A stretch of 64,000 nt of DNA from a virus. Where the stretch lies: the IMG/VR virus record IMGVR_UViG_3300037782_000115, positions 32,001 through 96,000 of that record. One strand, given 5' to 3'. The notes beneath the pieces are model-generated. The model was not told the DNA's origin. It did no database searches and saw only the letters and a list, made by a program, of their open reading frames with translations. A program made the translations under genes and the position numbers. The first letter of the stretch is position 1, and each line of letters starts with the position of its first letter. This document shows positions 36,491 to 52,245 of the stretch, piece by piece.

Positions 36491-36566
36491 ACGGCGGATG
36501 TTCCACGTGGAACACTCGCAAATCGCCGCTCGAGCCCTTTCGGGCGCGATCGGCGTGATCGGGTCA
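36491..36566. repeat. Intergenic ~75-bp repeat, copy 1, containing a parS-type palindrome (36499-36514)
   Basis: TGTTCCACGTGGAACA plus GCCC-TTTC-GGGC hairpin; near-identical to 37035-37122. Confidence 0.9.
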
Positions 36567-37034: not shown

Positions 37035-37122
37035 ACGGCGAATGTTCCACGTGGAACACTCGCAAAACGCCGCTCGAGCCCTTTCGGGCGCGATCGGCGC
37101 GATCGGCGTGATCGTCGGGTCA
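37035..37122. repeat. Intergenic repeat, copy 2, containing a parS-type palindrome (37043-37058)
   Basis: TGTTCCACGTGGAACA; extra GATCGGCGC unit. Confidence 0.9.
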
Positions 37123-37494: not shown

Positions 37495-37809
37495 CTGCTC
37501 AGCCGGTAATACATGGCGGTGGAGCAACGGGGGGTCCGCGGGGGCTCGGCGGGGGTGGGCTGGTTTGCCGTCCCACCTGGGTCATCGCCTCTGATCGGGG
37601 TCTGATCTCCCGATCGGGGTCCATACGTGGCCCAAACAGGCCCGAATGCCGCGCGGCTAGCCAGGTACCAAACAGCGACCGAGCCGATTGATTCGGTTCG
37701 CGTGATGACCATCCGACCAATGGGCGCGGTTGAGCCTTTGCCGTCGGTCAGTGTTTGGCGCAAGCTGGGCGCAGCTGGGCCCGTCCGCCCTGTCCGCCTA
37801 GGGCAGTCT

Positions 37810-38270
37810 CTGACGGGCCCCCAAGGCCCCGGGCGAGTCTGAGCCCGACCGAGCAGGCCCGGGCCCCGCAGAGGCCCACACAGAGGCCCGCAGAGGCCCA
37901 GCTCGGATCTAGACCGAGCCCGGGCCCCGCAGAGGCCCGCAGAGGCCCCGGGCGAGTCTGAGCCCGACCGAGCGCCTGCCCGACCGACCGGGCGGGACAA
38001 AGCCTTCCCGCCCGATCGACCGAGCGCCAGACTGAGCGCCGGGCCCGCGACCGAACGACCGAGCGCCGAACCGAGCGCGCATTCTGGGCAGAGATCGACC
38101 GAGCGCCCGAATCCGAGCGCCGATCGATCAGCGCCGAACACGACCGATTTGGCGAAGTGGTCAGCCCCAAAAACAAACAAGGCCCCGAATCGGGGCAAGT
38201 TGGGCGAATTGTGGCAGGTTGGTCGGGGGACCATAAACCCGCGCCCGATCTTTCGACCGAGCGCGGGCGG
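37810..38270. repeat. Non-coding mosaic repeat array (CAGAGGCCC x5; (GA)CCGAGCGC-like about x9; duplicated GGCCCCGGGCGAGTCTGAGCCCGACCGAGC)
   Basis: Co-oriented direct repeats, several about 10-12 bp apart; only low-complexity ORFs cross the region. Confidence 0.85.
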
Positions 38271-38285
38271 GAGAGTTTGCGGGGG

Positions 38286-39119
38286 TTACTTGCTGGTGGC
38301 CTTAGCCTGCGCCTTGGACGATTCGCCCTTGGGTGTCGGTTCGACGATCCCAGCCTGAAGCGCCCGCAGCACGTCCGCGATACCCGACACGACGGGTGCG
38401 GGGGTATCCTTGGGCAGGCTTGCCCCGGTGAAGACTTCCACCAGCTCGGACACGTCGCCATCGTGTTCGACGAACTGACGCGCCATGGTCAGCGCTGGAG
38501 CAGCGCCCGTTCCGAGCGCGTCAACAAACAGGGTGGCCCGGGCCTGATAGCCCGCAGCACTGGGCCCGCGCTTCACAGTCTCAAGCGCCGATTTCAGGGT
38601 GGGCGGGACAGACGCTTGGGCCTTGGCGATTCTCTCAGCCTCAGCCTTGGCGCGGTCCGCCTCAGCCTTGACCAAATCGCACCCGCCAACCCGGGCGGAA
38701 TCCAGCAAGGCAACCAGCAAGGGGACGAGATTCGCACGGGCCTTGCCGACGTCGGTAATGCCCAGCTCCGACAAGGGGACGGACACCCCAACACTATCGC
38801 CGTCGATCAGCGAATCCGGCGCACGTTCTGCGGTGGGCAGAGGGGGGGCCTTGCCTTCGCCCTTCTCGCTTGCTGACAGGGCGCGGGCAAGCCTCAGAGC
38901 AGGGGCCTTGTCATCACCCCCGACACCAACACCCACACCACCACTCGGTCGGTTGCGCCGCCACTCCCCGCAGTGACTGACGAAGCGCGGGGCCCGCACC
39001 ACGAAAGACAGGGCGTCAGCATCGGGTAGCGTGAACCCGGTAGCGCCAAGGCCTTGCGGGGCCTTCTCCTGATCGGTGTTCTTGGTGTTGGTGGTATCGG
39101 TGTTCTTTGCGTCTTTCAT
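38286..39119 (-). CDS. First gene of the leftward arm; Ala-rich hypothetical protein
   Basis: GGAG RBS before MKDAKNTD. Confidence 0.65.
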   Translation of the reverse strand: MKDAKNTDTTNTKNTDQEKAPQGLGATGFTLPDADALSFVVRAPRFVSHCGEWRRNRPSGGVGVGVGGDDKAPALRLARALSASEKGEGKAPPLPTAERAPDSLIDGDSVGVSVPLSELGITDVGKARANLVPLLVALLDSARVGGCDLVKAEADRAKAEAERIAKAQASVPPTLKSALETVKRGPSAAGYQARATLFVDALGTGAAPALTMARQFVEHDGDVSELVEVFTGASLPKDTPAPVVSGIADVLRALQAGIVEPTPKGESSKAQAKATSK

Positions 39120-39820
39120 GGTTGAGACTCCAATAGGCCCCGGGGTGAATCGGTGGGAGTGGGGCCCATACTCCCGGTCTGCGGGACGTCCCACAAACGT
39201 AGGCCCAGCCTACACCGGATCATCGGGCCCCGCTACCCTCTATCTCCATCATCCGAAAAAAAAATTTCAGCCCACCCCTATTTGGGCAAGCCCGGAATGC
39301 AAAGTGGCAGAGGCTAGCGCTAAACCGGGATCAGCAAGAATCACGCGGCAAGGCCCACTAGACCCGACACCCGGAAGGAACGACCATAACCCGGCGCTAT
39401 CAATCGCATAGGCTCGGCTTATGGTCCCGATCAGCCTGCCCGATTCGCCACTCGCCCACCAACCGACCCGTCGGCGCGACCAACCGACCGGTCGACCGCG
39501 CGACCGAGCCCCGGGCCCCAAGCTCAGACCCCGGACCGTACGCCCAGAGGCCTTGGATCGGGCCTCGGACCGGACGGCTAGACCGATCGGCAAAGGGGAC
39601 ACTGGCAAGGTTGGGGTAGGGTGCCGTTAGCCTAACGCCACCCGACAAGACACTCTCCGAACGCCACCCGACCAGGTACTGGCACTCAGCGGCTTACCCA
39701 ATTTGTGGCGGTATTTTCCAGCCCCTGTTTCGTTGTTTTTTTGGCTGGCGTTGTTCTTGGGGGTGTGGTCGTGTCGTGTTATTTTTGTGCGGGTATTTTT
39801 CTCGGGGAGTCGATCGGGGT

Positions 39821-39850
39821 TTGACATGGATCTCAGTTGTCGTCTACGGT
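39821..39850 (+). promoter_or_regulatory. Putative sigma70 promoter of the rightward arm
   Basis: TTGACA-18-TACGGT. Confidence 0.5.
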
Positions 39851-39949
39851 GAAGTGGGGCCTGGTTTGTTGTGAGATCCCGCGGATCAGATGGGTTGGCG
39901 TAGTACCTGGGTCGGCGATTTTTTGGCGCGTTTTTTGGAGGCAGGAGAT

Positions 39950-40348
39950 ATGGATATTGCGTCTGTGGTTGCGGTGTCGAAGGGGCTTGAGCGGTTGGCG
40001 TTGGAGGTGGTGTTGTTTGAGCTCGAGCATTTGGATGGCGGCATGGCGAGACGTCGCGGTTTTTTGGTGTCGCGTGCGTGCAGGACTGTGATGGGCGAGT
40101 GCGGGGTCGCGAGCGAGCGTGCGGGGCTGGCGGCGGGCGTGCGGGAGGCGGTGGATGGGGCGATCGATGTCGCGATCCGGGAAGGGCTCGTGCGGGCGGA
40201 TGATGGCCTGCTCACCTGGGTCGGGCCGGAGTTACCCATCGGGCGGGGCGAGAGGGCCGGCGACCGGGTCACGGATCTGGTCCAAGTCGCGGTGTTGGGT
40301 ATGCTGCTCACCGCACTCGCCATGTTCTTTGTCCGACTCATCTTCTGA
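39950..40348 (+). CDS. Winged-helix-like protein with C-terminal TM helix (family member 1)
   Basis: AGGAG RBS; AIDVAIREGLVRADDGLLTW; hydrophobic C-terminus. Confidence 0.65.
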   Translation: MDIASVVAVSKGLERLALEVVLFELEHLDGGMARRRGFLVSRACRTVMGECGVASERAGLAAGVREAVDGAIDVAIREGLVRADDGLLTWVGPELPIGRGERAGDRVTDLVQVAVLGMLLTALAMFFVRLIF

Positions 40349-40425
40349 TCGAGAGCAACCGACACGATCGGGTGGGGACCGTGTGTGGAGTGTGCGCTAT
40401 TTCTGTCGATTCCATCGTCCGGGTA

Positions 40426-40454
40426 TTGACAAGGTAGTGGGTGCGCTGTACCGT
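40426..40454 (+). promoter_or_regulatory. Putative sigma70 promoter
   Basis: TTGACA-17-TACCGT. Confidence 0.55.
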
Positions 40455-40539
40455 GCGGTTCTCCCCGGGGACATGAGAGATTTCGGGCCCGAGAAGGGCA
40501 TCGATCAGCAGAATCGGGCCCGCTTTTTGGAGTCGCGAT

Positions 40540-41031
40540 ATGGATAACGAACGACCCGCCGCGAACCGCGTTGAGATTGGGCCCCGATTATGGCGATGGC
40601 CAGAGGCCGTAAAGGCGGTCTGCGAGGCCCTCTACACACACTCGACACCGCACGTCAGATCGATCGATCGCCAAGAGCTCGAGGAACTGGCCTTCCAGAA
40701 GATCATGAACGCGGGCGCCAACAGGCCCGCCGCCGTGGTCAGCCGAATGGTCATCCACTCGATCGATGAGTTGATCGAGCGACAGCACATCCGGGAGCTC
40801 GGGGGCGGAAAAAGCCTCTGCCTCACCCAGCTGGGCATCATGGAGTGCACGCCAACCCTCTATCTGACCCCCGAGCACTATGCGACCGGAACGCGGGCGA
40901 GTGCGCAGATCCCGGCGCCGCAGTGGCGACGGGCCACCTCCATCATCCGACTGGTCACCATGCTCGCAATGCCGGTTGTGCTCTACCTGGCGATCCAGGG
41001 CGCGAAGGTCGTGTTTGGAACGGGAGACTGA
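40540..41031 (+). CDS. wHTH + C-terminal TM protein (member 2)
   Basis: WRWPEAVKAVCEAL; SIDELIERQHIRELGGGKSLCLTQLG; TM tail. Confidence 0.7.
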   Translation: MDNERPAANRVEIGPRLWRWPEAVKAVCEALYTHSTPHVRSIDRQELEELAFQKIMNAGANRPAAVVSRMVIHSIDELIERQHIRELGGGKSLCLTQLGIMECTPTLYLTPEHYATGTRASAQIPAPQWRRATSIIRLVTMLAMPVVLYLAIQGAKVVFGTGD

Positions 41032-41032
41032 T

Positions 41033-41938
41033 ATGGGAACCATCATCGCGGGCCGGGAATGGGAGTCGCCAGAAGGCGCGTTGGCGGTGATCGACGCGAT
41101 TTGCAAGGCGGGCTATGAAACCGCGGCGGATCTATCCGAGCCGGCGCGAGAATTACTGATCTCCGAGGCCGCCGATGCGCTGCTCGGATCCAGGGTCGGG
41201 CTCGAGCGGACATCGAGAACACGCGCCGCCGCCGGCTTCGAAGACCTGCTCAGGCTCGAGCTCATCATCAAACACGACGACCACTACCTCATCACCGGCC
41301 TCGTCGACGAGTGGTACCGGGTTCGATGCGCGTTGCGCTCGCACCTCCGAGCCGCGGCCGTCGAGGCCCAGGTCGCCACAAGGATGTCGGCGCGCGGGCC
41401 AGACCGCAAAGACGACCCCAGAAATTACATCGACGACGAAGTCGATTTTGTAGGGAGTAAACAGATGGGAGATCACAAAGCGAATTCGCCCCACAAAGGG
41501 GCGGAAGTCATCCGGGCTGTGCTGAAAAAATATGGGTGCGGCCCGACATCGGGCGGCATGAGCAAAGAAGGATTGCTGGCAAGAGCCGTGGACACATTGG
41601 AGGCACAGTGCTCCGAAAGGGGGCCGACCCTTCAAGCCATCGCAACGGAGGGCCTCGGTCTACTTCTCGAAAGCGGCGATGTCGAAAGCGTCGACGGCAT
41701 TATTAGGCTGCGCGTTGCGACCGCCCCAAGCGGCATTCCAGCCGGCGGCGAAACCAACTGCGACCGGCTCGCCTCCGACAGGGCCGCGTGTCAAGCCGCT
41801 GTGTCACGGGCCGAGGGTGCTTCCGCCTACGCCAACAAGATCCTGCCATGGGTTCTCGGCCTCGCCATTGCGGTCCAGGTCTGCGCCCTGGTCATCGTGG
41901 TGCTGGCGGCGATGGCGATTGTTCGCATCATGGGCTGA
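41033..41938 (+). CDS. Tandem two-wHTH + C-terminal TM protein (member 3)
   Basis: WESPEGALAVIDAI...FEDLLRLELIIKHDDHYLIT; second unit GAEVIRAVL...LGLLLESGDVESVDGIIRL; TM tail. Confidence 0.7.
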   Translation: MGTIIAGREWESPEGALAVIDAICKAGYETAADLSEPARELLISEAADALLGSRVGLERTSRTRAAAGFEDLLRLELIIKHDDHYLITGLVDEWYRVRCALRSHLRAAAVEAQVATRMSARGPDRKDDPRNYIDDEVDFVGSKQMGDHKANSPHKGAEVIRAVLKKYGCGPTSGGMSKEGLLARAVDTLEAQCSERGPTLQAIATEGLGLLLESGDVESVDGIIRLRVATAPSGIPAGGETNCDRLASDRAACQAAVSRAEGASAYANKILPWVLGLAIAVQVCALVIVVLAAMAIVRIMG

Positions 41939-41967
41939 GACTCACGATCGATTCACGGGAGGTCAGC

Positions 41968-42450
41968 ATGGACGATCGAGAAGCACAGGCGGCCGAAGGC
42001 GGGGAACCGATGTTCTGGCGGTCGGCCGAGGGCGCGTACGCAGTCATCCAGGCGCTCAAGGGCAAGGACACCCTGCGCAGTGTGCACCACGACACGTTGA
42101 TCCACTGCGCGGCGGAATCGATCGCGACCGAGACCGGCGAGAGCCCATGGTGGTCCCACCTCCAGGCGATGTTTGGGCTCGAGGACGCCGTACAAAACGG
42201 GGTCATCATCGAATCGTCGGGAAGGTATTACCACCTGGCCAACAACGGGGAAGTGCCCCACAGATTGCTCGTCGATCTCCGGGTCGCCCGCAATCAAGAG
42301 CAGGACGCCAGGGCGCTGGGGTCATCACCGACAAGGCGAGAAAGCATCGGCATCGGCGCTGCGGCGGCGCTCTACGTCATGACGTGGGTCGCCGCGGCGA
42401 TTCTGTTGGCGGCATTGATCAACCACGTATGCAACACACTCCGGTCATGA
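41968..42450 (+). CDS. wHTH + C-terminal TM protein (member 4)
   Basis: GGAGGT RBS; WRSAEGAYAVIQAL...LEDAVQNGVIIESSGRYYHL; TM tail. Confidence 0.7.
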   Translation: MDDREAQAAEGGEPMFWRSAEGAYAVIQALKGKDTLRSVHHDTLIHCAAESIATETGESPWWSHLQAMFGLEDAVQNGVIIESSGRYYHLANNGEVPHRLLVDLRVARNQEQDARALGSSPTRRESIGIGAAAALYVMTWVAAAILLAALINHVCNTLRS

Positions 42451-42463
42451 AGGACGGGCGAAC

Positions 42464-43006
42464 ATGGAGAGGGTGATGACAGAGACAAAGGCAGTATGTC
42501 ACGGGTGCAAAGCGGCTGGCGGTGACGGTAAAGACCCGGCAGCCGTGCGCACTGTGTCCACGAAGAGCCTCCTGCTGACACGCGGCCAGAGGGCAGAGAC
42601 GATCGCTTGTGACGCGGCGCTCTCGGCGTACAAGAACGGGGTCTGGTTGTCGCAACCAGACTTTCGAGAGGAGGTTGTTGGGCAGATTATGGTCCACACT
42701 GCGGCCTGGAAGGCGTTTCTTACAGAGAACAAGGGCAAGGTTGTCGTGGTCGATGAGAAAGACGAATCCGGCGCGACGATCAGGGCGTCGGCGGCGATAT
42801 CAGAGCTAATTCTGGCCGGCTATTTCGATATTCGCGACGATGACGAGGGACGCGCCACACTGAGGCTGAACAAGCGTGGTGCTCGCTACGCCAAGAAGGT
42901 TGTGCGAGGGTACGACCTCGTCGATTTCATCGGCGGGATCGTGCTGAACATAATCTTCTCGGCGATGTTCCTCGCGATCATAGGTTATTGGGTCAAGCCA
43001 ATCTGA
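42464..43006 (+). CDS. wHTH + C-terminal TM protein (member 5)
   Basis: AISELILAGYFDI...TLRLNKRG; TM tail FIGGIVLNIIFSAMFLAIIGYW. Confidence 0.65.
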   Translation: MERVMTETKAVCHGCKAAGGDGKDPAAVRTVSTKSLLLTRGQRAETIACDAALSAYKNGVWLSQPDFREEVVGQIMVHTAAWKAFLTENKGKVVVVDEKDESGATIRASAAISELILAGYFDIRDDDEGRATLRLNKRGARYAKKVVRGYDLVDFIGGIVLNIIFSAMFLAIIGYWVKPI

Positions 43007-43052: not shown

Positions 43053-43346
43053 ATGATTCTCGACTGGAAAACATCAAAAGAAGACACGCTCGTGATCACA
43101 AAGATCGCCCGCCGGGCGATAGATGACGGCGTCACCGATGACGACATGCTCACGGTCAGCATGGACCTGACGGCGGTGCATCTTTCGGTCGGCCTCGAGC
43201 TGGCCAACCTCCTGGCCGCGCCGGCCGACGAATTCCGGCACGACATCGAGGGGATCCAGGAGAACATCAACCGCAGAACCGGCGAGCTCGCCGGGTGCTT
43301 TGTGCCCAGATACGCGACACCGCAGGCCGAGAAGGGCGGCAAGTGA
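43053..43346 (+). CDS. Conserved phage protein (DUF6874-like)
   Basis: MDLTAVH...LLAA...FRHDIEGI..NINRRTGEL..CFVPRYA; AAGGAG RBS. Confidence 0.7.
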   Translation: MILDWKTSKEDTLVITKIARRAIDDGVTDDDMLTVSMDLTAVHLSVGLELANLLAAPADEFRHDIEGIQENINRRTGELAGCFVPRYATPQAEKGGK

Positions 43347-44934: not shown

Positions 44935-45127
44935 TGGAATGAAAGACCCGGAAGCCGTTGCTTTGTCTTCCAAGATCATCCAGTTCCGTGACGAAATGAT
45001 CCGCCTTCGCAGGACGAGGACCGCCCAGGCATTGGATCACGCTATGGACTGCTACGCCGCCGACGTGAGCGAGAAGCACAAAACGTCGCTCATTCTTGTG
45101 TCTCGGAAAACGAGGAGGCGGCCATGA
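44924..45127 (+). CDS. Hypothetical protein
   Basis: GGGAG RBS; translationally coupled. Confidence 0.55.
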   Translation: MSVDGMKDPEAVALSSKIIQFRDEMIRLRRTRTAQALDHAMDCYAADVSEKHKTSLILVSRKTRRRP

Positions 45128-45519
45128 CCACCGCACAAGGCTTCACCGACGCCGACCTCGTCTTCTGCATCGAGAACATAACCGACGACGCGAGAGCGAG
45201 GCTGAACATCATGCAGTATGAACACGGCCTTTGGTGTATCGAGCGCGGCGAAGATTTCGGATTTGTTGACGAGTTCACCTACGCCGACCACGCCGCCGTG
45301 CTCGCGGAGGTGGAGATGGAATTGAGGACGAAGCACGGAACGCTGATAGTCCCGATCGCATTTGGGGGCGACATATACTTTGTCCCGTCGCAAATCACAA
45401 ACATCGCCGGAGATACCGTCGAACTCAAGATGGGCGACAAGGTCGGAGACACTCCGGACATCTTCACTGCCGCCCACGACGCACTCGCGCAGGTCAAGGA
45501 GGTGGGCGATGCCAACTGA
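45124..45519 (+). CDS. Hypothetical protein
   Basis: GGAGG RBS; ATGA overlap. Confidence 0.65.
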   Translation: MTTAQGFTDADLVFCIENITDDARARLNIMQYEHGLWCIERGEDFGFVDEFTYADHAAVLAEVEMELRTKHGTLIVPIAFGGDIYFVPSQITNIAGDTVELKMGDKVGDTPDIFTAAHDALAQVKEVGDAN

Positions 45520-45564: not shown

Positions 45565-45840
45565 GTGAGCCCCAACCAAATATCACACTGGCGGTCCGTT
45601 CTGTTTGAAAAGTACAGACTATTCCTTGGAGGAATCAAGGAAGAAACAGTCTCTTACCACGCTGGGAAGCTCCTGACTCGGCGAGGATACGAGCGAGTGT
45701 ACAGGACTGGTGTGTGGGTCTGGCGGCGTCCGCAAGATACGTCTCGGGGTGTCTCGTCAACAAGCGAACCGCACGCCTGCTACTTGGCGACGTGTAAAGA
45801 AGCTGGCGTCAAGCCGCAGAAGCGCAAGGAAGGCAGGTGA
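45565..45840 (+). CDS. Hypothetical protein
   Basis: C-terminal SEP...CKEAG resembles the end of 46551-46913. Confidence 0.5.
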   Translation: MSPNQISHWRSVLFEKYRLFLGGIKEETVSYHAGKLLTRRGYERVYRTGVWVWRRPQDTSRGVSSTSEPHACYLATCKEAGVKPQKRKEGR

Positions 45841-46268
45841 AGGACGTGTGTACTTCAAGTAACCCAGCCAAAGAACAGAAGAATACGCCAACTGGCGCCG
45901 ACATCGAAGCGTTCAGTAGATTCATACGTGTGTGCGAATCACCCGCCAACAAGGCGAGAACCGGAACGCAGAGACTTCGGATGATCGATGGGTGGGAGAA
46001 TCGTGATGGTCACGGCTGGGGACGATGCACGGCGTACCAAGGGAAAATACCACCCACACATCCCGAGCCGATCGACATCCAGGCCGTGCACGGCGCAATC
46101 GCCACCTTCTGTGAGAACAACAACAACCTGATCCAGACGTGGAAAATAAAGGACGGCGAGTGCATGTGTCAGATCGTCGTGGACATGCACCGTGCAATAG
46201 CCACTGGTTATGGGCCGACATACCTGGCCGCCCAAGTGGACGCGATTGAGAATCTGATATATTCGTGA
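45837..46268 (+). CDS. Hypothetical protein
   Basis: GTGA overlap; 143 aa. Confidence 0.55.
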   Translation: MKDVCTSSNPAKEQKNTPTGADIEAFSRFIRVCESPANKARTGTQRLRMIDGWENRDGHGWGRCTAYQGKIPPTHPEPIDIQAVHGAIATFCENNNNLIQTWKIKDGECMCQIVVDMHRAIATGYGPTYLAAQVDAIENLIYS

Positions 46269-46368: not shown

Positions 46369-46554
46369 ATGGGCAAAGAAATGACACCGGGCCGAGCAAT
46401 TGTTGAGGGCCTGTCTGGGCTACTGAAAACGCTGCGCGATGGAGCAAAGCCGGAGGAACGCTACAGGTCCGCAACGGTTCGGAGAATCACCAACCCGAAG
46501 ACCGGCGAGGAAATCATCACGCGGATCTCAACAGATCCAAAGGAGCAGAAGTGA
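46369..46554 (+). CDS. Small protein resembling an antitoxin N-terminus
   Basis: GRAIVEGLSGLLKTL; GGAGG RBS. Confidence 0.5.
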   Translation: MGKEMTPGRAIVEGLSGLLKTLRDGAKPEERYRSATVRRITNPKTGEEIITRISTDPKEQK

Positions 46555-46913
46555 TCACCCCCGATCCCGCCCACATCACCGCATTGCTCGAGTATTTACC
46601 CGAAGACGCACTGAATCGGCTCGGGTGGAAACGCAACAAAGCGATTCGCGGTGGGTGGACCGTACACGACGGGAACACCACGCGATGGGTCGCGACTGCG
46701 ACCTATACCAATCTCGCCGCCATCTGCCACGAGGTCTCAATATGGCTGAGGGACGAGCACGGCAAGATAGTGTCGCCGACCATCAGAAACATAGACGGCG
46801 TAAGGCGATGGGTCCTCGTGCATCTCGCCGAGAATGGGTGTGCACCACGGCTCGACTGTGCCGACAGCGAACCGGCCGCCCTCGTCGCGGCCTGCAAGGA
46901 GATAGGGAAGTGA
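46551..46913 (+). CDS. Hypothetical protein
   Basis: AAGGAG RBS; ends DSEPAALVAACKEIGK. Confidence 0.6.
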   Translation: MITPDPAHITALLEYLPEDALNRLGWKRNKAIRGGWTVHDGNTTRWVATATYTNLAAICHEVSIWLRDEHGKIVSPTIRNIDGVRRWVLVHLAENGCAPRLDCADSEPAALVAACKEIGK

Positions 46914-47326: not shown

Positions 47327-47753
47327 ACAAAAACAGAGACCGTCCCCGTCTCTTGCAGAAGCCGCGGTCGCACTAGACACATTGCGAGGCGAGTACGCGA
47401 CCCGGGGTGCCGACGTGCATGTCGAAGTCACGCAGGGTTTCATATCCAAATGCGTGAGCGTGATGCACAGATCGGCCGACCACATAGAAGAGCTTGAAGC
47501 AGAGAAAGTACAACTCAAAGACAAGGCCGACGCATACGACATTCTGCAATGGCTGATCAGCGAGGGGCACCACGACTTCCGCTGGGACTACGACTGTGAC
47601 ACCGAGATCGTCACGCTTGAATCGTCAGGGCTGACGGTCGAGACCTCACTGCACGAACTCGGGCGCGACAGTGTCGCGACAACGCTTCGGATGCTCAAGG
47701 CACTCGCTGAACCAAGAAAGCGATCGGATGCGGCCGCCCACAAACAAGCATGA
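47319..47753 (+). CDS. Hypothetical protein
   Basis: GGGAG RBS; RSADHIEELEAE coiled coil. Confidence 0.6.
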   Translation: MSEQKQRPSPSLAEAAVALDTLRGEYATRGADVHVEVTQGFISKCVSVMHRSADHIEELEAEKVQLKDKADAYDILQWLISEGHHDFRWDYDCDTEIVTLESSGLTVETSLHELGRDSVATTLRMLKALAEPRKRSDAAAHKQA

Positions 47754-48219
47754 GGACGCGACGGGTGCTCTACACAGGTTCATGTTGCATGCGGCGTGCA
47801 ATCCGGAGTTAGGCGGCATTTCTCTGCCCGAAACCATCGTGAAGTGTGTGATTAGCAACACAACCAGCAAGGGCCGCGGCGCCAGGGCGGTCTTATACAG
47901 AAACATGTATGTGGATACGCGCGATATCGGCATCATTGAGTATGGCATGATTGTGAACATAGTGACCTCTGTATTGATGAGCGAGGTTGACAGACTGCAC
48001 AACCTGAGCGGGCGCGCCGGCGGCCAGGCGGCAAACATCATGACAAAGCAGAAGATGTCCACAGCAGCCGAGAGGATGGTGGTAGACGAAATAAGCAAAC
48101 TCGAGAAGAAAGGAGATCTCGTAGTAGCGATGATCAATCCAACTGACGACACACTAGAGGTCTGGCTACGCCATAAAGATGTGTCGTTCCGTGAACCAGC
48201 GGGGCGGATGCCGCTATGA
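47728..48219 (+). CDS. Hypothetical protein, possible wHTH
   Basis: ISKLEKKGDLVV; start uncertain. Confidence 0.5.
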   Translation: MRPPTNKHEDATGALHRFMLHAACNPELGGISLPETIVKCVISNTTSKGRGARAVLYRNMYVDTRDIGIIEYGMIVNIVTSVLMSEVDRLHNLSGRAGGQAANIMTKQKMSTAAERMVVDEISKLEKKGDLVVAMINPTDDTLEVWLRHKDVSFREPAGRMPL

Positions 48220-48584
48220 CAATCGTCGACACGATCGATGGGTCGGACTACGTGGATGCCGCGTGCATCACGGCGGTGTCGCGTATAACAAGCGATGGTT
48301 ATGTGCCAGAATACATAGCCGTGGTCGACATGGCCGCAGCCAGCCTCGGCGGCGGCCTGGTGCGAGGCAAGAGCGCGGCATCATCGGTCAAGCATTCGCT
48401 GGAACGTCTGGTTTCACAGGGGTACCTAGAGATCGATCAGATCACTGTCATAAAGGGCTCGCCCATCGGGGTCTTGTTGAAGCTCACTAAGAAGGGCGAG
48501 TCCTTACAGAAAACGGCGGCCGAAACGAGCAAGAGAGCGGAGCAATTTCTAGCAAGGTCGGCGGCCGAGGAGCGCTTTGAATGA
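48216..48584 (+). CDS. Winged-helix protein (MarR-like wing)
   Basis: SVKHSLERLVSQGYLEI...LLKLTKKG. Confidence 0.7.
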   Translation: MTIVDTIDGSDYVDAACITAVSRITSDGYVPEYIAVVDMAAASLGGGLVRGKSAASSVKHSLERLVSQGYLEIDQITVIKGSPIGVLLKLTKKGESLQKTAAETSKRAEQFLARSAAEERFE

Positions 48585-48976
48585 ACAACGTGTGGAAGCG
48601 ACCAGAGGGTATGACGAAGCGGCGATGGGCCAGGTACATCAAGGCCATGGTCTATGTTCTCGAGCAACTTAACAAGTCCAGTGACATAACGAGAAGTAAA
48701 CTCGTCGAAGTCGCGAGCAAAGCAAATGCCAACGACGGCGCCATCGTCAGTCAATTAATCGCAATCGGCTCTGTCAACCGGCTGGTCGACCACGGCATGG
48801 TTGTGTACGAGCGCAGTTGTGGCTGCAAAAACAACAGACTGATGTTTATCACTAACAGAGGCATTAGGGAGATGGCCAGAGCCAACAGGCGTGCCGGGCT
48901 AAGGAGAGTGTTGGCCGCGCTGGCCGTCGCTACGGCGTGTGGTGTGATAGCTTTTTTAATCGGATACTTGCAGTAG
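48581..48976 (+). CDS. wHTH + C-terminal TM protein (member 6)
   Basis: WKRPEG; SVNRLVDHGMVVYER...MFITNRG; TM tail. Confidence 0.7.
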   Translation: MNNVWKRPEGMTKRRWARYIKAMVYVLEQLNKSSDITRSKLVEVASKANANDGAIVSQLIAIGSVNRLVDHGMVVYERSCGCKNNRLMFITNRGIREMARANRRAGLRRVLAALAVATACGVIAFLIGYLQ

Positions 48977-49075
48977 CCAGCGTCTAATGAAGTGGGCAAG
49001 GCCAGGCGAGAAGGAGAAGCCGATGCCTCAGACACCGAATGGACTCTCGGCGCCAGCGAAAGGGGATGTCTCGCG

Positions 49076-49549
49076 ATGAAGACCGCGTGGCACATGTCGG
49101 GGTGGGTGGCGATCGCGACGGTTATGGCGACGGCCACGGCGGCCGCGAGCATCAGCATTGATGGATCCGTGACCAGGGCGGTTATGATGGCGGTGGTCGC
49201 GTTCAGCATCATCGGGATGTTTGAGTCGATGGTGAACAAGACCAGGTCCTACCCGGTTTATATGGCGATCGTCTGGTTCAACAACGCCAGGTTCGTCTCT
49301 GAGGTGGCTGGCGCCGGTCCGGTGTGGTCGGTCGTAATCGGCGCCGTGGCGCTCCTGCTGGCGGCGTGGTTCGGAGTGATGTATCTTTACGCCAGCAGGT
49401 CGCACACCGAAGGCGACGGCGGAGACCATCAATGCTCAGAATCACCGGACAGCTGGCCACAATCAGGTGCCCACAGTGTAATGGGGTCGGCCGGGTGCCG
49501 ATGGACCAGACGTACACAGTCAGAACGGGAACACCCGGCACACCACTGA
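49076..49549 (+). CDS. Multi-pass membrane protein
   Basis: 3-4 hydrophobic segments. Confidence 0.55.
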   Translation: MKTAWHMSGWVAIATVMATATAAASISIDGSVTRAVMMAVVAFSIIGMFESMVNKTRSYPVYMAIVWFNNARFVSEVAGAGPVWSVVIGAVALLLAAWFGVMYLYASRSHTEGDGGDHQCSESPDSWPQSGAHSVMGSAGCRWTRRTQSEREHPAHH

Positions 49550-49947: not shown

Positions 49948-50571
49948 GTGCGGGACGGACTGATAATGTTTTGGGACTCACTCTTACAGCATTGGCAATC
50001 AGCGGCCCTTATCGCCGGCGCAATCGGGTTCTTCATCGCACTCAGGGGCTTTGGCGAGTTTGTCAGACAGTTCAGCATGACCCAGGTCGAGATGCTGCGG
50101 GCGATCGTCAAAAACGAGGCGGTCGAGATCAAGCAGCACGCCGAGCAGGCGGTTATCAGAACCAATGGCTACCCGGCTCTGTGCTTGCAGAATTCCCCCT
50201 TTCCATTCTGGTACAAGGAATACGTCGGCGGCGGCTTCGTGATGAAGAGCATCAACCCGGCGTACACCAAGCTGTTTGGCGTCACCCAAGAGGAGTACGT
50301 CGGCAAGTCCGACGATGCGCTGTGGCCGAAGGCCACCGCCGAGATGATGAGAACCAACGACCAGACGGTCTACGTGACCGGTCGACAGCTCAGAACGATC
50401 GAGAGCCTGCCGGACAACCCCGCAGACCCGAACTCGCCAATGACGCAATGGCTGGTTGTTAAATACCCGGTGCCATCATCTGAGGGCGGCATCAAGGGTG
50501 TAGCCGGCACCTGCTACCCGCTGGAAAAATTCGACAAGATCATCGTCTCGACCCTGCCCTCGATCATCTAG
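49948..50571 (+). CDS. Membrane-anchored PAS-domain protein
   Basis: N-terminal TM; SPFPFWYK...SINPAYTKLFGVTQEEYVGKSDDALWP..TAE..RTNDQTV...VVKYPV...GVAG. Confidence 0.85.
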   Translation: MRDGLIMFWDSLLQHWQSAALIAGAIGFFIALRGFGEFVRQFSMTQVEMLRAIVKNEAVEIKQHAEQAVIRTNGYPALCLQNSPFPFWYKEYVGGGFVMKSINPAYTKLFGVTQEEYVGKSDDALWPKATAEMMRTNDQTVYVTGRQLRTIESLPDNPADPNSPMTQWLVVKYPVPSSEGGIKGVAGTCYPLEKFDKIIVSTLPSII

Positions 50572-50578
50572 ACCGCTG

Positions 50579-50607
50579 TTGACATACCAGTCCGAAACCA
50601 GTACGAT
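50579..50607 (+). promoter_or_regulatory. Sigma70 promoter
   Basis: TTGACA-17-TACGAT. Confidence 0.75.
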
Positions 50608-50655: not shown

Positions 50656-52245
50656 ATGAAATCAACAGGCCTGATCGTCGACAACTTTGCTGGCGCCGGT
50701 GGCGCGAGCGTGGGCATCGAGAGCGCTATGGGAAGGAAGGTCGATTACGCGATCAACCACGACCCAGAGGCGATAGAGACCCACGTTGCGAATCACCCGA
50801 ACACCAAGCACTTGATCGAGGATGTCTTCGATGTCGACCCGCGTGAGCTATGTGCTGGGCGACCGGTCGACCTAGCCTGGTTCAGCCCAGACTGCACACA
50901 CCATTCACGAGCAAAAGGCGGCAAGCCACGCGACAACAAGCGGCGAGGTCTCGCGTGGGTTGTCATTCGGTGGGCCGCAACAGTTCGTCCCAAAGTCATC
51001 ATGCTCGAGAATGTCCCGGAGTTCCAGACGTGGGGCCCGCTCAACAGCGACGGACAGCCGTGCAAACGCCGGACTGGAGAAACATTTAGGTCGTGGGTCG
51101 GCGAGCTGCGCCAACTCGGGTACGACGTGCAATGGCGAGAGCTCGTTGCCGCAGACTATGGCGCACCGACGATCCGCAAACGACTCTTTCTCGTCGCCAG
51201 GTGCGACGGCGAACCGATCCGGTGGCCGACGCCGACGCACGCGCCGCGCCACAAGGCGGTCGTTCTTGGCCTTGAGCCATGGAGGTCGGCGGCAGACTGC
51301 ATTGACTGGTCGCTCCCGATGCTCTCGATCTTTGCCACGCCGGACGAGGCCAAAGAGTGGGCCAGGGCCAACGGGGTGTCGGCGCCAAGGCGTCCGCTCG
51401 CAGACGCAACGCTGCGTCGCATCGCCCGGGGCGTGATGCGGTTTGTTGTCGAGTCGGATGACCCGTTCGTAGTGACGTACGCGCAGCATGGTGGATCATC
51501 ACGCAGCCCATCAGAGCCGATGCACACGATCACAGCCAGCGGCAAGGACCAGAACTGCATCGCAGTCCCAACCCTGATCCAGACCGGGCACGGCGAGAGA
51601 AAAGGTCAGAAGCCGCGCAGCCTCGACATACACGCCCCCCTCGGCACCTGTGTCGCCGGTGGGTGCAAGCACGGCCTGGTGTCGGCGATGTTGTCCAAGC
51701 ACAACGGAAAGACCACGGGGCAGAGGGCGTCAGATCCGCTTCACACCATCGCCGGCAACATCAACAAAAGTCTTGTCGCCTGCTCTCTCGAGAAGATGCG
51801 TGGCACTGGCCGCGGCGGCAGCCTGCGAGAACCTGCGCCTACGCAGACCGCGGGAGGAAACCACGCCGGCCTCGTGTGCGCGTTCTTGCAGAAGTATTAC
51901 GGCAGCACAAAAGATGGCGCCCCAATGGATTCTCCGATGCACACAGTGTCGTGCACCGATAGATTCGGACTGGTCACCGTGGCCGGGCATGACTACATGA
52001 TCGGCGATATTTCAATGAGGATGCTACAACCGCACGAGCTGTTGAAGGCTCAGTTCGGACGATTCGCCAGTGGCTACACATTGCTCGGCACCAAACGCAG
52101 GCAGGTGTCGTCCGTGGGCAACAGCGTATGCCCAGAGGTTGCGTACGCACTCGTATCGGCGAACTTCTTGAGGAACAACGTGTCATCTCATGTCGGAATC
52201 CACGCAGATGCGAAGTCGCCCACGGCAAAGCAGGTGATCTCATGA
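50656..52245 (+). CDS. DNA (cytosine-5)-methyltransferase, phage type
   Basis: DNFAGAGG, SPDCTHHS, ENVPEF, YGAPTIRKRLF, repeated P..TI target-recognition units, GNSVCP. Confidence 0.95.
   Translation: MKSTGLIVDNFAGAGGASVGIESAMGRKVDYAINHDPEAIETHVANHPNTKHLIEDVFDVDPRELCAGRPVDLAWFSPDCTHHSRAKGGKPRDNKRRGLAWVVIRWAATVRPKVIMLENVPEFQTWGPLNSDGQPCKRRTGETFRSWVGELRQLGYDVQWRELVAADYGAPTIRKRLFLVARCDGEPIRWPTPTHAPRHKAVVLGLEPWRSAADCIDWSLPMLSIFATPDEAKEWARANGVSAPRRPLADATLRRIARGVMRFVVESDDPFVVTYAQHGGSSRSPSEPMHTITASGKDQNCIAVPTLIQTGHGERKGQKPRSLDIHAPLGTCVAGGCKHGLVSAMLSKHNGKTTGQRASDPLHTIAGNINKSLVACSLEKMRGTGRGGSLREPAPTQTAGGNHAGLVCAFLQKYYGSTKDGAPMDSPMHTVSCTDRFGLVTVAGHDYMIGDISMRMLQPHELLKAQFGRFASGYTLLGTKRRQVSSVGNSVCPEVAYALVSANFLRNNVSSHVGIHADAKSPTAKQVIS

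Follow-up and report, generated by a model that had tools for sequence, protein, structure and literature searches.

What use might a phage have for a series of small proteins, each with a binding fold on a bare C-terminal membrane anchor? The question is raised by five consecutive plus-strand genes, here g1 to g5, at positions 39950-43006 of a 64,000-nucleotide stretch of viral DNA (the window), which comprises bases 32001-96000 of the 107,112-bp virus record IMGVR_UViG_3300037782_000115, a record with direct terminal repeats. Together with a sixth gene further downstream (g6), they were analysed by hydropathy, sequence and profile comparison, structure prediction and database searches. For most members the architecture of a cytoplasmic winged helix followed by one C-terminal anchor, with no ectodomain, is supported.

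Tail anchors and predicted topology

The six genes g1-g6 are real coding frames, with a GC content at third codon positions (GC3) in frame of 0.67-0.79; g1-g5 track the local third-position GC peak (0.7-0.87 in the frame of the gene). A Shine-Dalgarno-like site lies 5-10 nt ahead of the chosen ATG in each array gene; in g1 (in-frame GC3 0.75-0.85) this is GGAGG/AGGAG upstream of the start, in g4 GGGAGG ahead of the ATG. Each encoded protein possesses a single hydrophobic 19-mer (Kyte-Doolittle mean 2.09-2.96) ending 3-11 residues short of the stop codon, and elsewhere in these proteins the best hydropathy is at most 1.33. The hydropathy of the transmembrane (TM) helix is 2.42 in g1, 2.09 in g2 and 2.51 in g6; in g2 a Pro-rich linker of ~30 aa separates it from the winged helix. 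A hydrophobic C-terminus was found in 10 of the 841 six-frame open reading frames (ORFs; 50 aa or longer) of the entire 107-kb genome, and six of these ten are g1-g6; the chance of five consecutive tail-anchor genes among ~127 genes is P ~3e-6. The C-terminal helix of g3 was modelled by AlphaFold2 with a predicted local distance difference test score (pLDDT) of 80-93, although the rest of this single-sequence model was poor (overall pLDDT 42). Hydropathy and the short tails of 3-11 residues thus bear out what a first-pass annotation of the window had noted, that g1-g5 and the ORF at 48581-48976 (g6) each end in one TM helix with almost no external part.

Tail-anchored proteins have one TM segment within ~30 residues of the C-terminus, no signal sequence and no other TM segment, and this is what was found in g1-g6. 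Neither an N-terminal signal peptide nor a lipobox was detected in the six proteins, whose N-termini are hydrophilic and whose sole hydrophobic segment is C-terminal. The 15 residues ahead of the anchor carry a net charge of 0 to +4 and the tails one of 0 to +1; for g1 and g3 the N-in signal is weak. The neutral-to-positive pre-anchor segments and the lack of an N-terminal signal sequence are consistent with an N-in tail-anchored topology, in which the N-terminal domains should stay in the cytoplasm. A role as holin, spanin or other lysis protein was considered and is unlikely: the anchor is at the wrong terminus, the domains are predicted to be cytoplasmic, the genes have an early position, and a scan of neighbouring genes detected no lysis-gene family.

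Type-A units and their kinship

Four units, those of g2, of the N-terminal half of g3 (g3N), of g4 and of g6, carry a W-x-x-P-E-G-type motif and are referred to as type A. Their soluble cores align from a W-x-x-P/A-E-G/A start that they have in common, with a coherent pattern over ~95 residues, and this alignment shows that the N-terminal motif first seen in g2, g3, g4 and the sixth member is real. Smith-Waterman comparison against shuffled sequences gave z values of 6.3 for g3N-g4, 6.0 for g2-g6 and 5.7 for g2-g4. Leave-one-out comparison with hhalign returned E values of 3.6e-5 for g3N, 3.6e-4 for g2, 2.7e-4 for g4 and 0.011 for g6; no shuffled score lay above 17, and the score of g6 (19.0) is to be compared with a shuffle maximum of 15.2. 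By alignment and profile comparison, g2, g3N, g4 and g6 are shown to be diverged paralogs. Their pairwise identity is only 17-29%, which suggests fast divergence. It is the winged helix that is conserved among the paralogs; the TM helices are not.

The single paralogous family that had been proposed for all of these genes therefore holds for g2, g3N, g4 and g6, and does not extend to g1, g5 and g7 (a soluble protein encoded next to g6), whose kinship with type A was not detectable by hhalign (E 0.046, 0.36 and 0.013, respectively). Similarly, of the two units ascribed to g3, only the N-terminal one belongs to type A. The second unit fails leave-one-out against type A (E 0.37) and resembles g1 instead, with 26% identity over 103 residues, z 3.6 and a BLASTP E value of 0.42, which makes kinship between g1 and the C-terminal half of g3 suggestive; a profile built from these two (type B) gave E 0.29 against type A. 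By its sequence, g5 stands alone. Across the genome, matches to the type-A profile were limited to its own five training units.

The winged-helix fold

For structure prediction by AlphaFold2, residues 6-100 of g3 served as the target, with the five-unit alignment A2 as input. The type-A model (pLDDT 84.1, predicted template modelling score, pTM, 0.79) displays the succession H1-b1-H2-H3-b2-b3-H4 (H8-21, b27-28, H31-46, H53-69, b73-76, b79-82, H85-94), so that type-A units can with confidence be modelled as a canonical winged helix. When the model was compared with solved structures (Foldseek, VIA), nearly all top rows were winged-helix proteins (Z 5.3-7.9, Foldseek E 0.09-0.7), including MukF, JetA/B, MukE, BusR/GntR, TubR, SarA, MarR, H1 and cullin WHB. 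The N-terminal winged-helix domain (WHD) of MukF was the top full-length match (Z 7.4-7.9, 85-90 of 95 residues aligned, 18-19% identity), followed by JetA (Z up to 7.3), the Hel308 winged helix, GntR/BusR and TubR, at Z 6.2-7.3. Winged helices of transcription factors (GntR/BusR, SarA, MarR) and TubR lie within one Z unit of MukF and JetA, and hhalign of the type-A profile against residues 1-125 of E. coli MukF gave E 0.012 over 32 columns, which correspond to a generic helix-wing motif. The structural matches of the model are agreement at the level of the fold, not kinship. A fold search of BFVD returned weak generic winged helices only.

The ESM Atlas model of g5 (ESMFold, pTM 0.61) has PadR, HTH_24/MarR, SarS, the MukF WHD and JetA clusters as neighbours, with template modelling scores of 0.41-0.49. 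Neighbours of the g4 Atlas model (pLDDT 0.60) are mixed and include Mrr N-domains and linker histone. A core resembling a winged helix-turn-helix (wHTH) had been read into all five genes of the array; the models support it for the type of g2, g3N, g4 and g6 and for g5.

Surface charge and the presumed recognition helix

The soluble domains differ strongly in their isoelectric point (pI), with 5.0 for g1, 7.8 for g2, 5.3 for both g3 and g4, 8.8 for g5 and 10.7 for g6; the domains of g1, g3 and g4 have a net charge of -4 to -8. The presumed recognition helix H3 is not conserved: E-D/D-E occurs in g2, g3N and g4, apolar residues predominate in g4, g6 and the C-terminal unit of g3, and a basic beginning (RTSRTR) is confined to g3N. 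The modelled loop between H2 and H3 comprises six residues in the type-A model and is longer than the turn of a classical helix-turn-helix (HTH), which partly explains why kleisin domains and other winged helices that bind proteins obtain the best scores. Binding of nucleic acid is plausible for g6 and may perhaps be considered for g5, judged by their charge. For g1, g3 and g4 DNA binding is doubtful, given their acidic domains with a pI of about 5. DNA-to-membrane tethering by the array, the function put forward in the first-pass annotation, finds no computed support, and the sequences weaken it for half the set.

Search for relatives

Homologs of the array proteins were sought widely. An exhaustive phmmer search with g3 against 1.84 billion representatives found g3 itself only, and word-indexed searches of 5.8 billion clusters with g4, the type-A profile and g5 likewise returned nothing but self. 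Pattern scans of IMG/VR for g3 and g4 revealed no relatives, and cultured phages gave no match by blastn and tblastn. No match to g1-g6 was obtained in Pfam, NCBIfam or PDB sequences at E values up to 1 or 10, and scans of g1-g8 against Pfam, PHROGs, NCBIfam and PADLOC produced no meaningful family, rows for DrmC and a methyltransferase being noise. PDB sequence searches found nothing for the type-A profile, g1 and g5, and weak wHTH rows only for g7. The single family signal is that of phrog_21944 (function unknown) on residues 79-150 of g4, the part from wing to anchor, with E 3e-4.

The large terminase of the phage is 22-28% identical to that of the nearest cultured phages, which indicates an isolated lineage, and it has no close relative in IMG/VR. 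Contigs from several pond metagenome runs are letter-for-letter identical to the window region, and metagenome DNA contigs from the pond are identical over the array; without variation among them, no selection can be read.

Genomic setting and predicted expression

Primase and DnaB are encoded on the plus strand at 2.9-5.7 kb, and a long leftward arm holds genes for a helicase, an HNH endonuclease and an ATPase. Next, at ~37.4-39.9 kb, comes a non-coding divergence region rich in repeats. The array genes g1-g5 are the first plus-strand genes past the divergence point, densely packed with gaps of 1-30 nt, and head a rightward block that includes numerous small orphan ORFs, the gene of a DNA methyltransferase and, at 61.5 kb, that of the large terminase. 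Within the non-coding region, positions 37800-39700 carry dense co-oriented direct repeats (GACCGAGCGC-type 31-mers, five times, CAGAGGCCC units, and AACGCCACCCGAC, twice), to which some protein might bind. A perfect palindrome of 16 bp, TGTTCCACGTGGAACA, occurs twice, at 36499-36514 and 37043-37058, ~3 kb to the left of the array. It matches the chromosomal parS consensus, of which 0.02 occurrences would be expected. This exact palindrome we take to be of the Pseudomonas type of parS, and it could hint at the host.

The pattern TTGACA-N16-19-TACNNT has three matches in the window as compared with 0.14 expected, and none of 100 shuffles reached three. Two of the sites, P1 and P2, precede g1 and g2 (Table 1), and from these promoter-like motifs we infer that host RNA polymerase would transcribe the array early. 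From promoter to first codons, the leader cassettes of g1 and g2 can be aligned with one another; the g1 leader (39925-39960) and the g2 leader (40517-40550) have GGCsCGyTTTTTGGAG..GATATGGATA in common, first codons included. The g2 leader also contains a hairpin at 40484-40522, a 9-bp GC stem followed by U5, which sits just 5' of the ribosome-binding site and is terminator- or attenuator-like in appearance. Predicted RNA folds of the g1 and g2 leaders were no better than those of shuffles.

Comparison with known systems

The first-pass annotation knew of no described equivalent, a statement that proved too strong, as membrane-bound transcription regulators and the phi29 proteins p16.7 and p1 are already known (PMC10269533, PMC4974454). 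Demey et al. (2023) collected 50,302 transmembrane transcription regulators (TTRs) from 9,673 genomes, that is ~five per bacterial genome or 0.15% of genes, with 56% being single-pass proteins (PMC10269533). ToxR, TcpP, CadC and the TTR class have a cytoplasmic N-terminal HTH or winged-helix domain and a single TM helix, as the array proteins do, and lineage-specific expansions of TTRs occur (PMC10269533). TTRs differ in having a recognised DNA-binding domain and usually a periplasmic sensor, whereas the array proteins show no Pfam match, expose 3-11 residues outside, are acidic in half the cases and form an array in a phage.

For the early membrane proteins p16.7 and p1 of phi29, a role in anchoring the phage DNA during its replication has been proposed; what would be shared with the array is early synthesis, attachment to the host membrane and a proposed hold on nucleic acid or replication proteins (PMC4974454). 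In phi29, p16.7 is a single gene, in contrast to the diversified genes with C-terminal anchor of the array. The anchor of p16.7 is N-terminal, and its C-terminal domain for DNA binding and dimerisation is not a winged helix. No PHROG family of known function matches the array proteins, and hence there is no p16.7-like sequence similarity.

In phage TP-J34, the exclusion protein Ltp is attached to the membrane and binds a protein target by means of small helical repeat domains; phage origin, membrane attachment, small domains for a protein target and the importance of acidic surfaces would be features common to Ltp and the array (PMC3952083). Ltp is held by an N-terminal lipid anchor outside the cell, whereas the array proteins, whose domains are expected on the cytoplasmic side, have neither signal peptide nor lipobox. 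The repeat domains of Ltp were reportedly found by Bebeacua and colleagues in 2013 to have an HTH-type fold. The kleisin WHDs of MukF and JetA (PDB 1t98, 3euh, 7nz2, 9qxr) resemble type A in being extended winged helices in which H2 is long, a loop connects H2 to H3 and a helix follows the wing, and are of a protein-interaction (dimerisation) type rather than sequence readers. Kleisins are without a membrane anchor; the array proteins lack the middle and C-terminal domains of kleisins, no gene for an SMC (structural maintenance of chromosomes) partner lies nearby, and sequence similarity between the two is not significant. Bacterial tail-anchored proteins, such as those of the ElaB/YqjD type, have a C-terminal TM helix, a very short tail and a cytoplasmic domain, and are inserted post-translationally. 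Their cytoplasmic domains are unrelated to those of the array, and they are not known to be phage-encoded or arrayed.

Literature searches for such a layout turned up no account of tail-anchored winged-helix proteins that lack an ectodomain and are arrayed in a phage. What is new is the combination: a winged helix with a bare C-terminal anchor, in six copies (~4-5% of genes) in one phage, with no detectable relatives.

Proposed function and competing explanations

Charge, the absent ectodomain, orphan status and the divergence of the paralogs lead us to rank first, as a tentative reading that falls somewhat short of probable, that the array encodes diversified early membrane-anchored winged-helix adaptors, phage-specific and fast-evolving, each of which holds its own ligand at the membrane. 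The proteins would be made early by host RNA polymerase and would insert into the host inner membrane as tail-anchored proteins, where the winged helix would capture a ligand and keep it no more than a few nanometres from the membrane by way of a flexible linker of 10-40 residues. Different ligands may be expected for the paralogs, whose charge differs strongly (pI 5.0 to 10.7), as does the presumed recognition helix: the acidic g1, g3 and g4 would most likely bind host or phage proteins, and the basic g6, perhaps also g5, may bind nucleic acid. Such adaptors would serve host takeover, counter-defence or exclusion through relocation or sequestration of their targets, rather than classical gene regulation. 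Several points weigh against this proposal. Membrane insertion is a hydropathy prediction, the timing of expression rests solely on promoter-like motifs, and the Atlas models of g4 and g5 are of modest confidence, with template modelling scores below 0.5, while the winged-helix models do not extend to g1 or the C-terminal half of g3. An acidic domain overall does not exclude DNA binding. Moreover, a single phage lineage is the only known source of the array, so that conservation can lend no support to a function.

A tether that fixes phage DNA, perhaps through the 37.8-39.7 kb repeats, or the host nucleoid to the membrane and thereby organises replication is unlikely, even though it has more in its favour than the fold of the type-A model: g6 is strongly and g5 mildly basic, H3 of g3N has its RTSRTR start, dense direct repeats adjoin the array, and two parS-type palindromes are 3 kb off. 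Membrane proteins of phi29 that recruit replicating DNA provide a precedent (PMC4974454). This must be set against the pI of 5.0-5.3 of the g1, g3 and g4 domains, the H3 features described above (E-D/D-E in g2, g3N and g4, mostly apolar residues in g4, g6 and the g3 C-terminal unit), and a modelled loop of six residues where a classical turn is shorter; six divergent orphan copies are not what one expects of a housekeeping tether, and the repeats could not be linked to the array proteins by computation. Only a slim chance is given to a wider scheme in which the array forms a physical link between the membrane and either nucleic acid or the machinery that organises chromosomes, with g6 and g5 binding DNA and the acidic, MukF/JetA-like members capturing SMC- or ParB-type host complexes, possibly ones loaded at the two phage parS sites, such that a membrane zone for replication or protection is formed or surveillance of the Wadjet/MukBEF kind is disarmed. 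That the proteins are decoys of the kleisin N-terminal winged-helix domains, capturing host MukBEF or Wadjet or their partners and so disarming a chromosome-organising or anti-plasmid machinery, is highly improbable. MukF 19-116 and JetA 16-116 were the top full-length matches (Z 7.3-7.9, 82-90 of 95 residues), JetA and MukF-WHD clusters also appear near the independent g5 model, and phage targeting of MukEF is known from T7 gp5.9 bound to MukEF (PDB 9gmb). A Z below 8 fits a merely common arrangement, however, winged helices of transcription factors come within 1 Z unit of these matches, the profile match to E. coli MukF is confined to the generic motif described above, and the Pfam models WHD_KicB and JetA give no match.

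The layout of a DNA-binding-type fold on a single-pass anchor is the defining one of TTRs of the ToxR/CadC kind, which are common in bacteria (PMC10269533), and the array adjoins a repeat-rich divergent control region. Regulators that time phage genes by binding promoters from the membrane or after proteolytic release are nevertheless improbable here, as no OmpR/PhoB-type (Trans_reg_C) or other DNA-binding Pfam domain was found in g1-g6, a sensing ectodomain is missing (the tails have 3-11 aa), three members have acidic domains, and six such genes, at ~4-5% of genes, would amount to ~30 times the bacterial average of 0.15%. Superinfection exclusion or membrane-active takeover, with the membrane helix as effector acting on a membrane complex or on DNA entry and the winged helix serving oligomerisation or regulation, is rather improbable as well. 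Small early orphan membrane proteins in paralogous sets are typical of exclusion and takeover genes. T4 Imm and Sp are such genes. Polar or small residues in the TM segments (Q in g3, N in g5, the G/A-rich helices of g4 and g6) could drive helix-helix contacts, and Ltp, a membrane-attached exclusion protein, binds the tape measure protein through negative charges (PMC3952083). With the bulk of each array protein in the cytoplasm, there would be no meeting with an incoming phage at the surface as for Ltp; lipobox and signal peptide are lacking, and conservation between paralogs resides in the winged helix, not in the TM helix.

Features of the array and its neighbourhood

The coordinates of the array genes and of the associated features are compiled in Table 1.

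Table 1. Genes of the array, promoter-like sites and neighbouring genes (window positions; aa, residue numbers in the protein; nt, window positions of the TM segment).
Feature	Position	Strand	Description
g1	39950..40348	+	132 aa; acidic N-domain, pI 5.0; predicted TM 110-128 (nt 40277-40333); tail RLIF
g2	40540..41031	+	163 aa; type-A winged helix ~14-104; predicted TM 134-152 (nt 40939-40995); 11-aa tail
g3	41033..41938	+	301 aa; type-A winged helix 6-100; second unit ~152-231; predicted TM 272-297 (nt 41846-41923); tail RIMG
g4	41968..42450	+	160 aa; acidic type-A winged helix ~13-105; predicted TM 129-151 (nt 42352-42420); 9-aa tail
g5	42464..43006	+	180 aa (176 aa from 42476); winged-helix-like core ~40-150; predicted TM 153-175 (nt 42920-42988); tail WVKPI
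g6	48581..48976	+	131 aa; type-A winged helix, pI 10.7; short basic linker; predicted TM 108-128 (nt 48902-48964); tail YLQ
g7	48216..48584	+	122 aa, soluble; MarR/HxlR-like recognition-helix-plus-wing pattern; possible soluble winged helix
P1, sigma-70-like promoter-like site	39821..39850	+	TTGACA-18 nt-TACGGT, ~100 nt upstream of g1
P2, sigma-70-like promoter-like site	40426..40454	+	TTGACA-17 nt-TACCGT, ~100 nt upstream of g2 (ahead of g2-g5)
Third TTGACA-N17/18-TACNNT site	50579-50607		before the DNA methyltransferase gene at 50656
DUF6874 / phrog_12453 gene	43053..43346	+	directly 3' of g5; Pfam PF21779, E 1.5e-19; phrog_12453, E 3.4e-18

The DUF6874 gene is probably part of the transcription unit of g5 and is context rather than a member of the array. 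It is the only gene of the neighbourhood with relatives elsewhere, at 42% identity in two IMG/VR contigs, where these sit in unrelated contexts; one of them is fused to an N-terminal extension (L002 5788-6357).

Soluble versions of the array proteins had also been suspected downstream. Residues 49-112 of g7 gave weak matches to wHTH regulators only (Fe_dep_repress, E 0.038; phrog_11046, E 0.02; LdtR, E 0.062; YodB, E 0.19; MarR, E 0.8), no single one of them significant, and the ORF near 47728 gave none. Directly 3' of g6 follows an ORF of 185 aa with at least two hydrophobic segments (48992-49549). The soluble winged-helix-like g7, the anchored g6 and this multi-pass gene make up a small second cluster.

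The rightward block contains a second pair of small orphan paralogs at 45124-45519 and 46551-46913 (BLASTP E 1e-8, 30% identity over 70 residues, z 12.3), to which the ORF at 45837-46268 may belong as a third, weaker member (E 0.014). Just before the methyltransferase gene, at 49948-50571, the phage encodes a protein of 207 aa with a PAS_4 domain (E 8.8e-10).

Significance

The finding is limited by resting on a single uncultured genome; with an uncultured phage, an unknown host and no relatives, tests must be heterologous. As regards the early-gene content of phages, much is missed by sequence searches and becomes readable when a few paralogs are aligned and folded. If DNA or host factors are indeed held at the membrane by these proteins, the phage would have a compact and modular means to reorganise the interior of its host, built from one of the commonest binding folds and a minimal anchor, and the six divergent copies would be a natural panel for what a membrane-tethered winged helix can capture.

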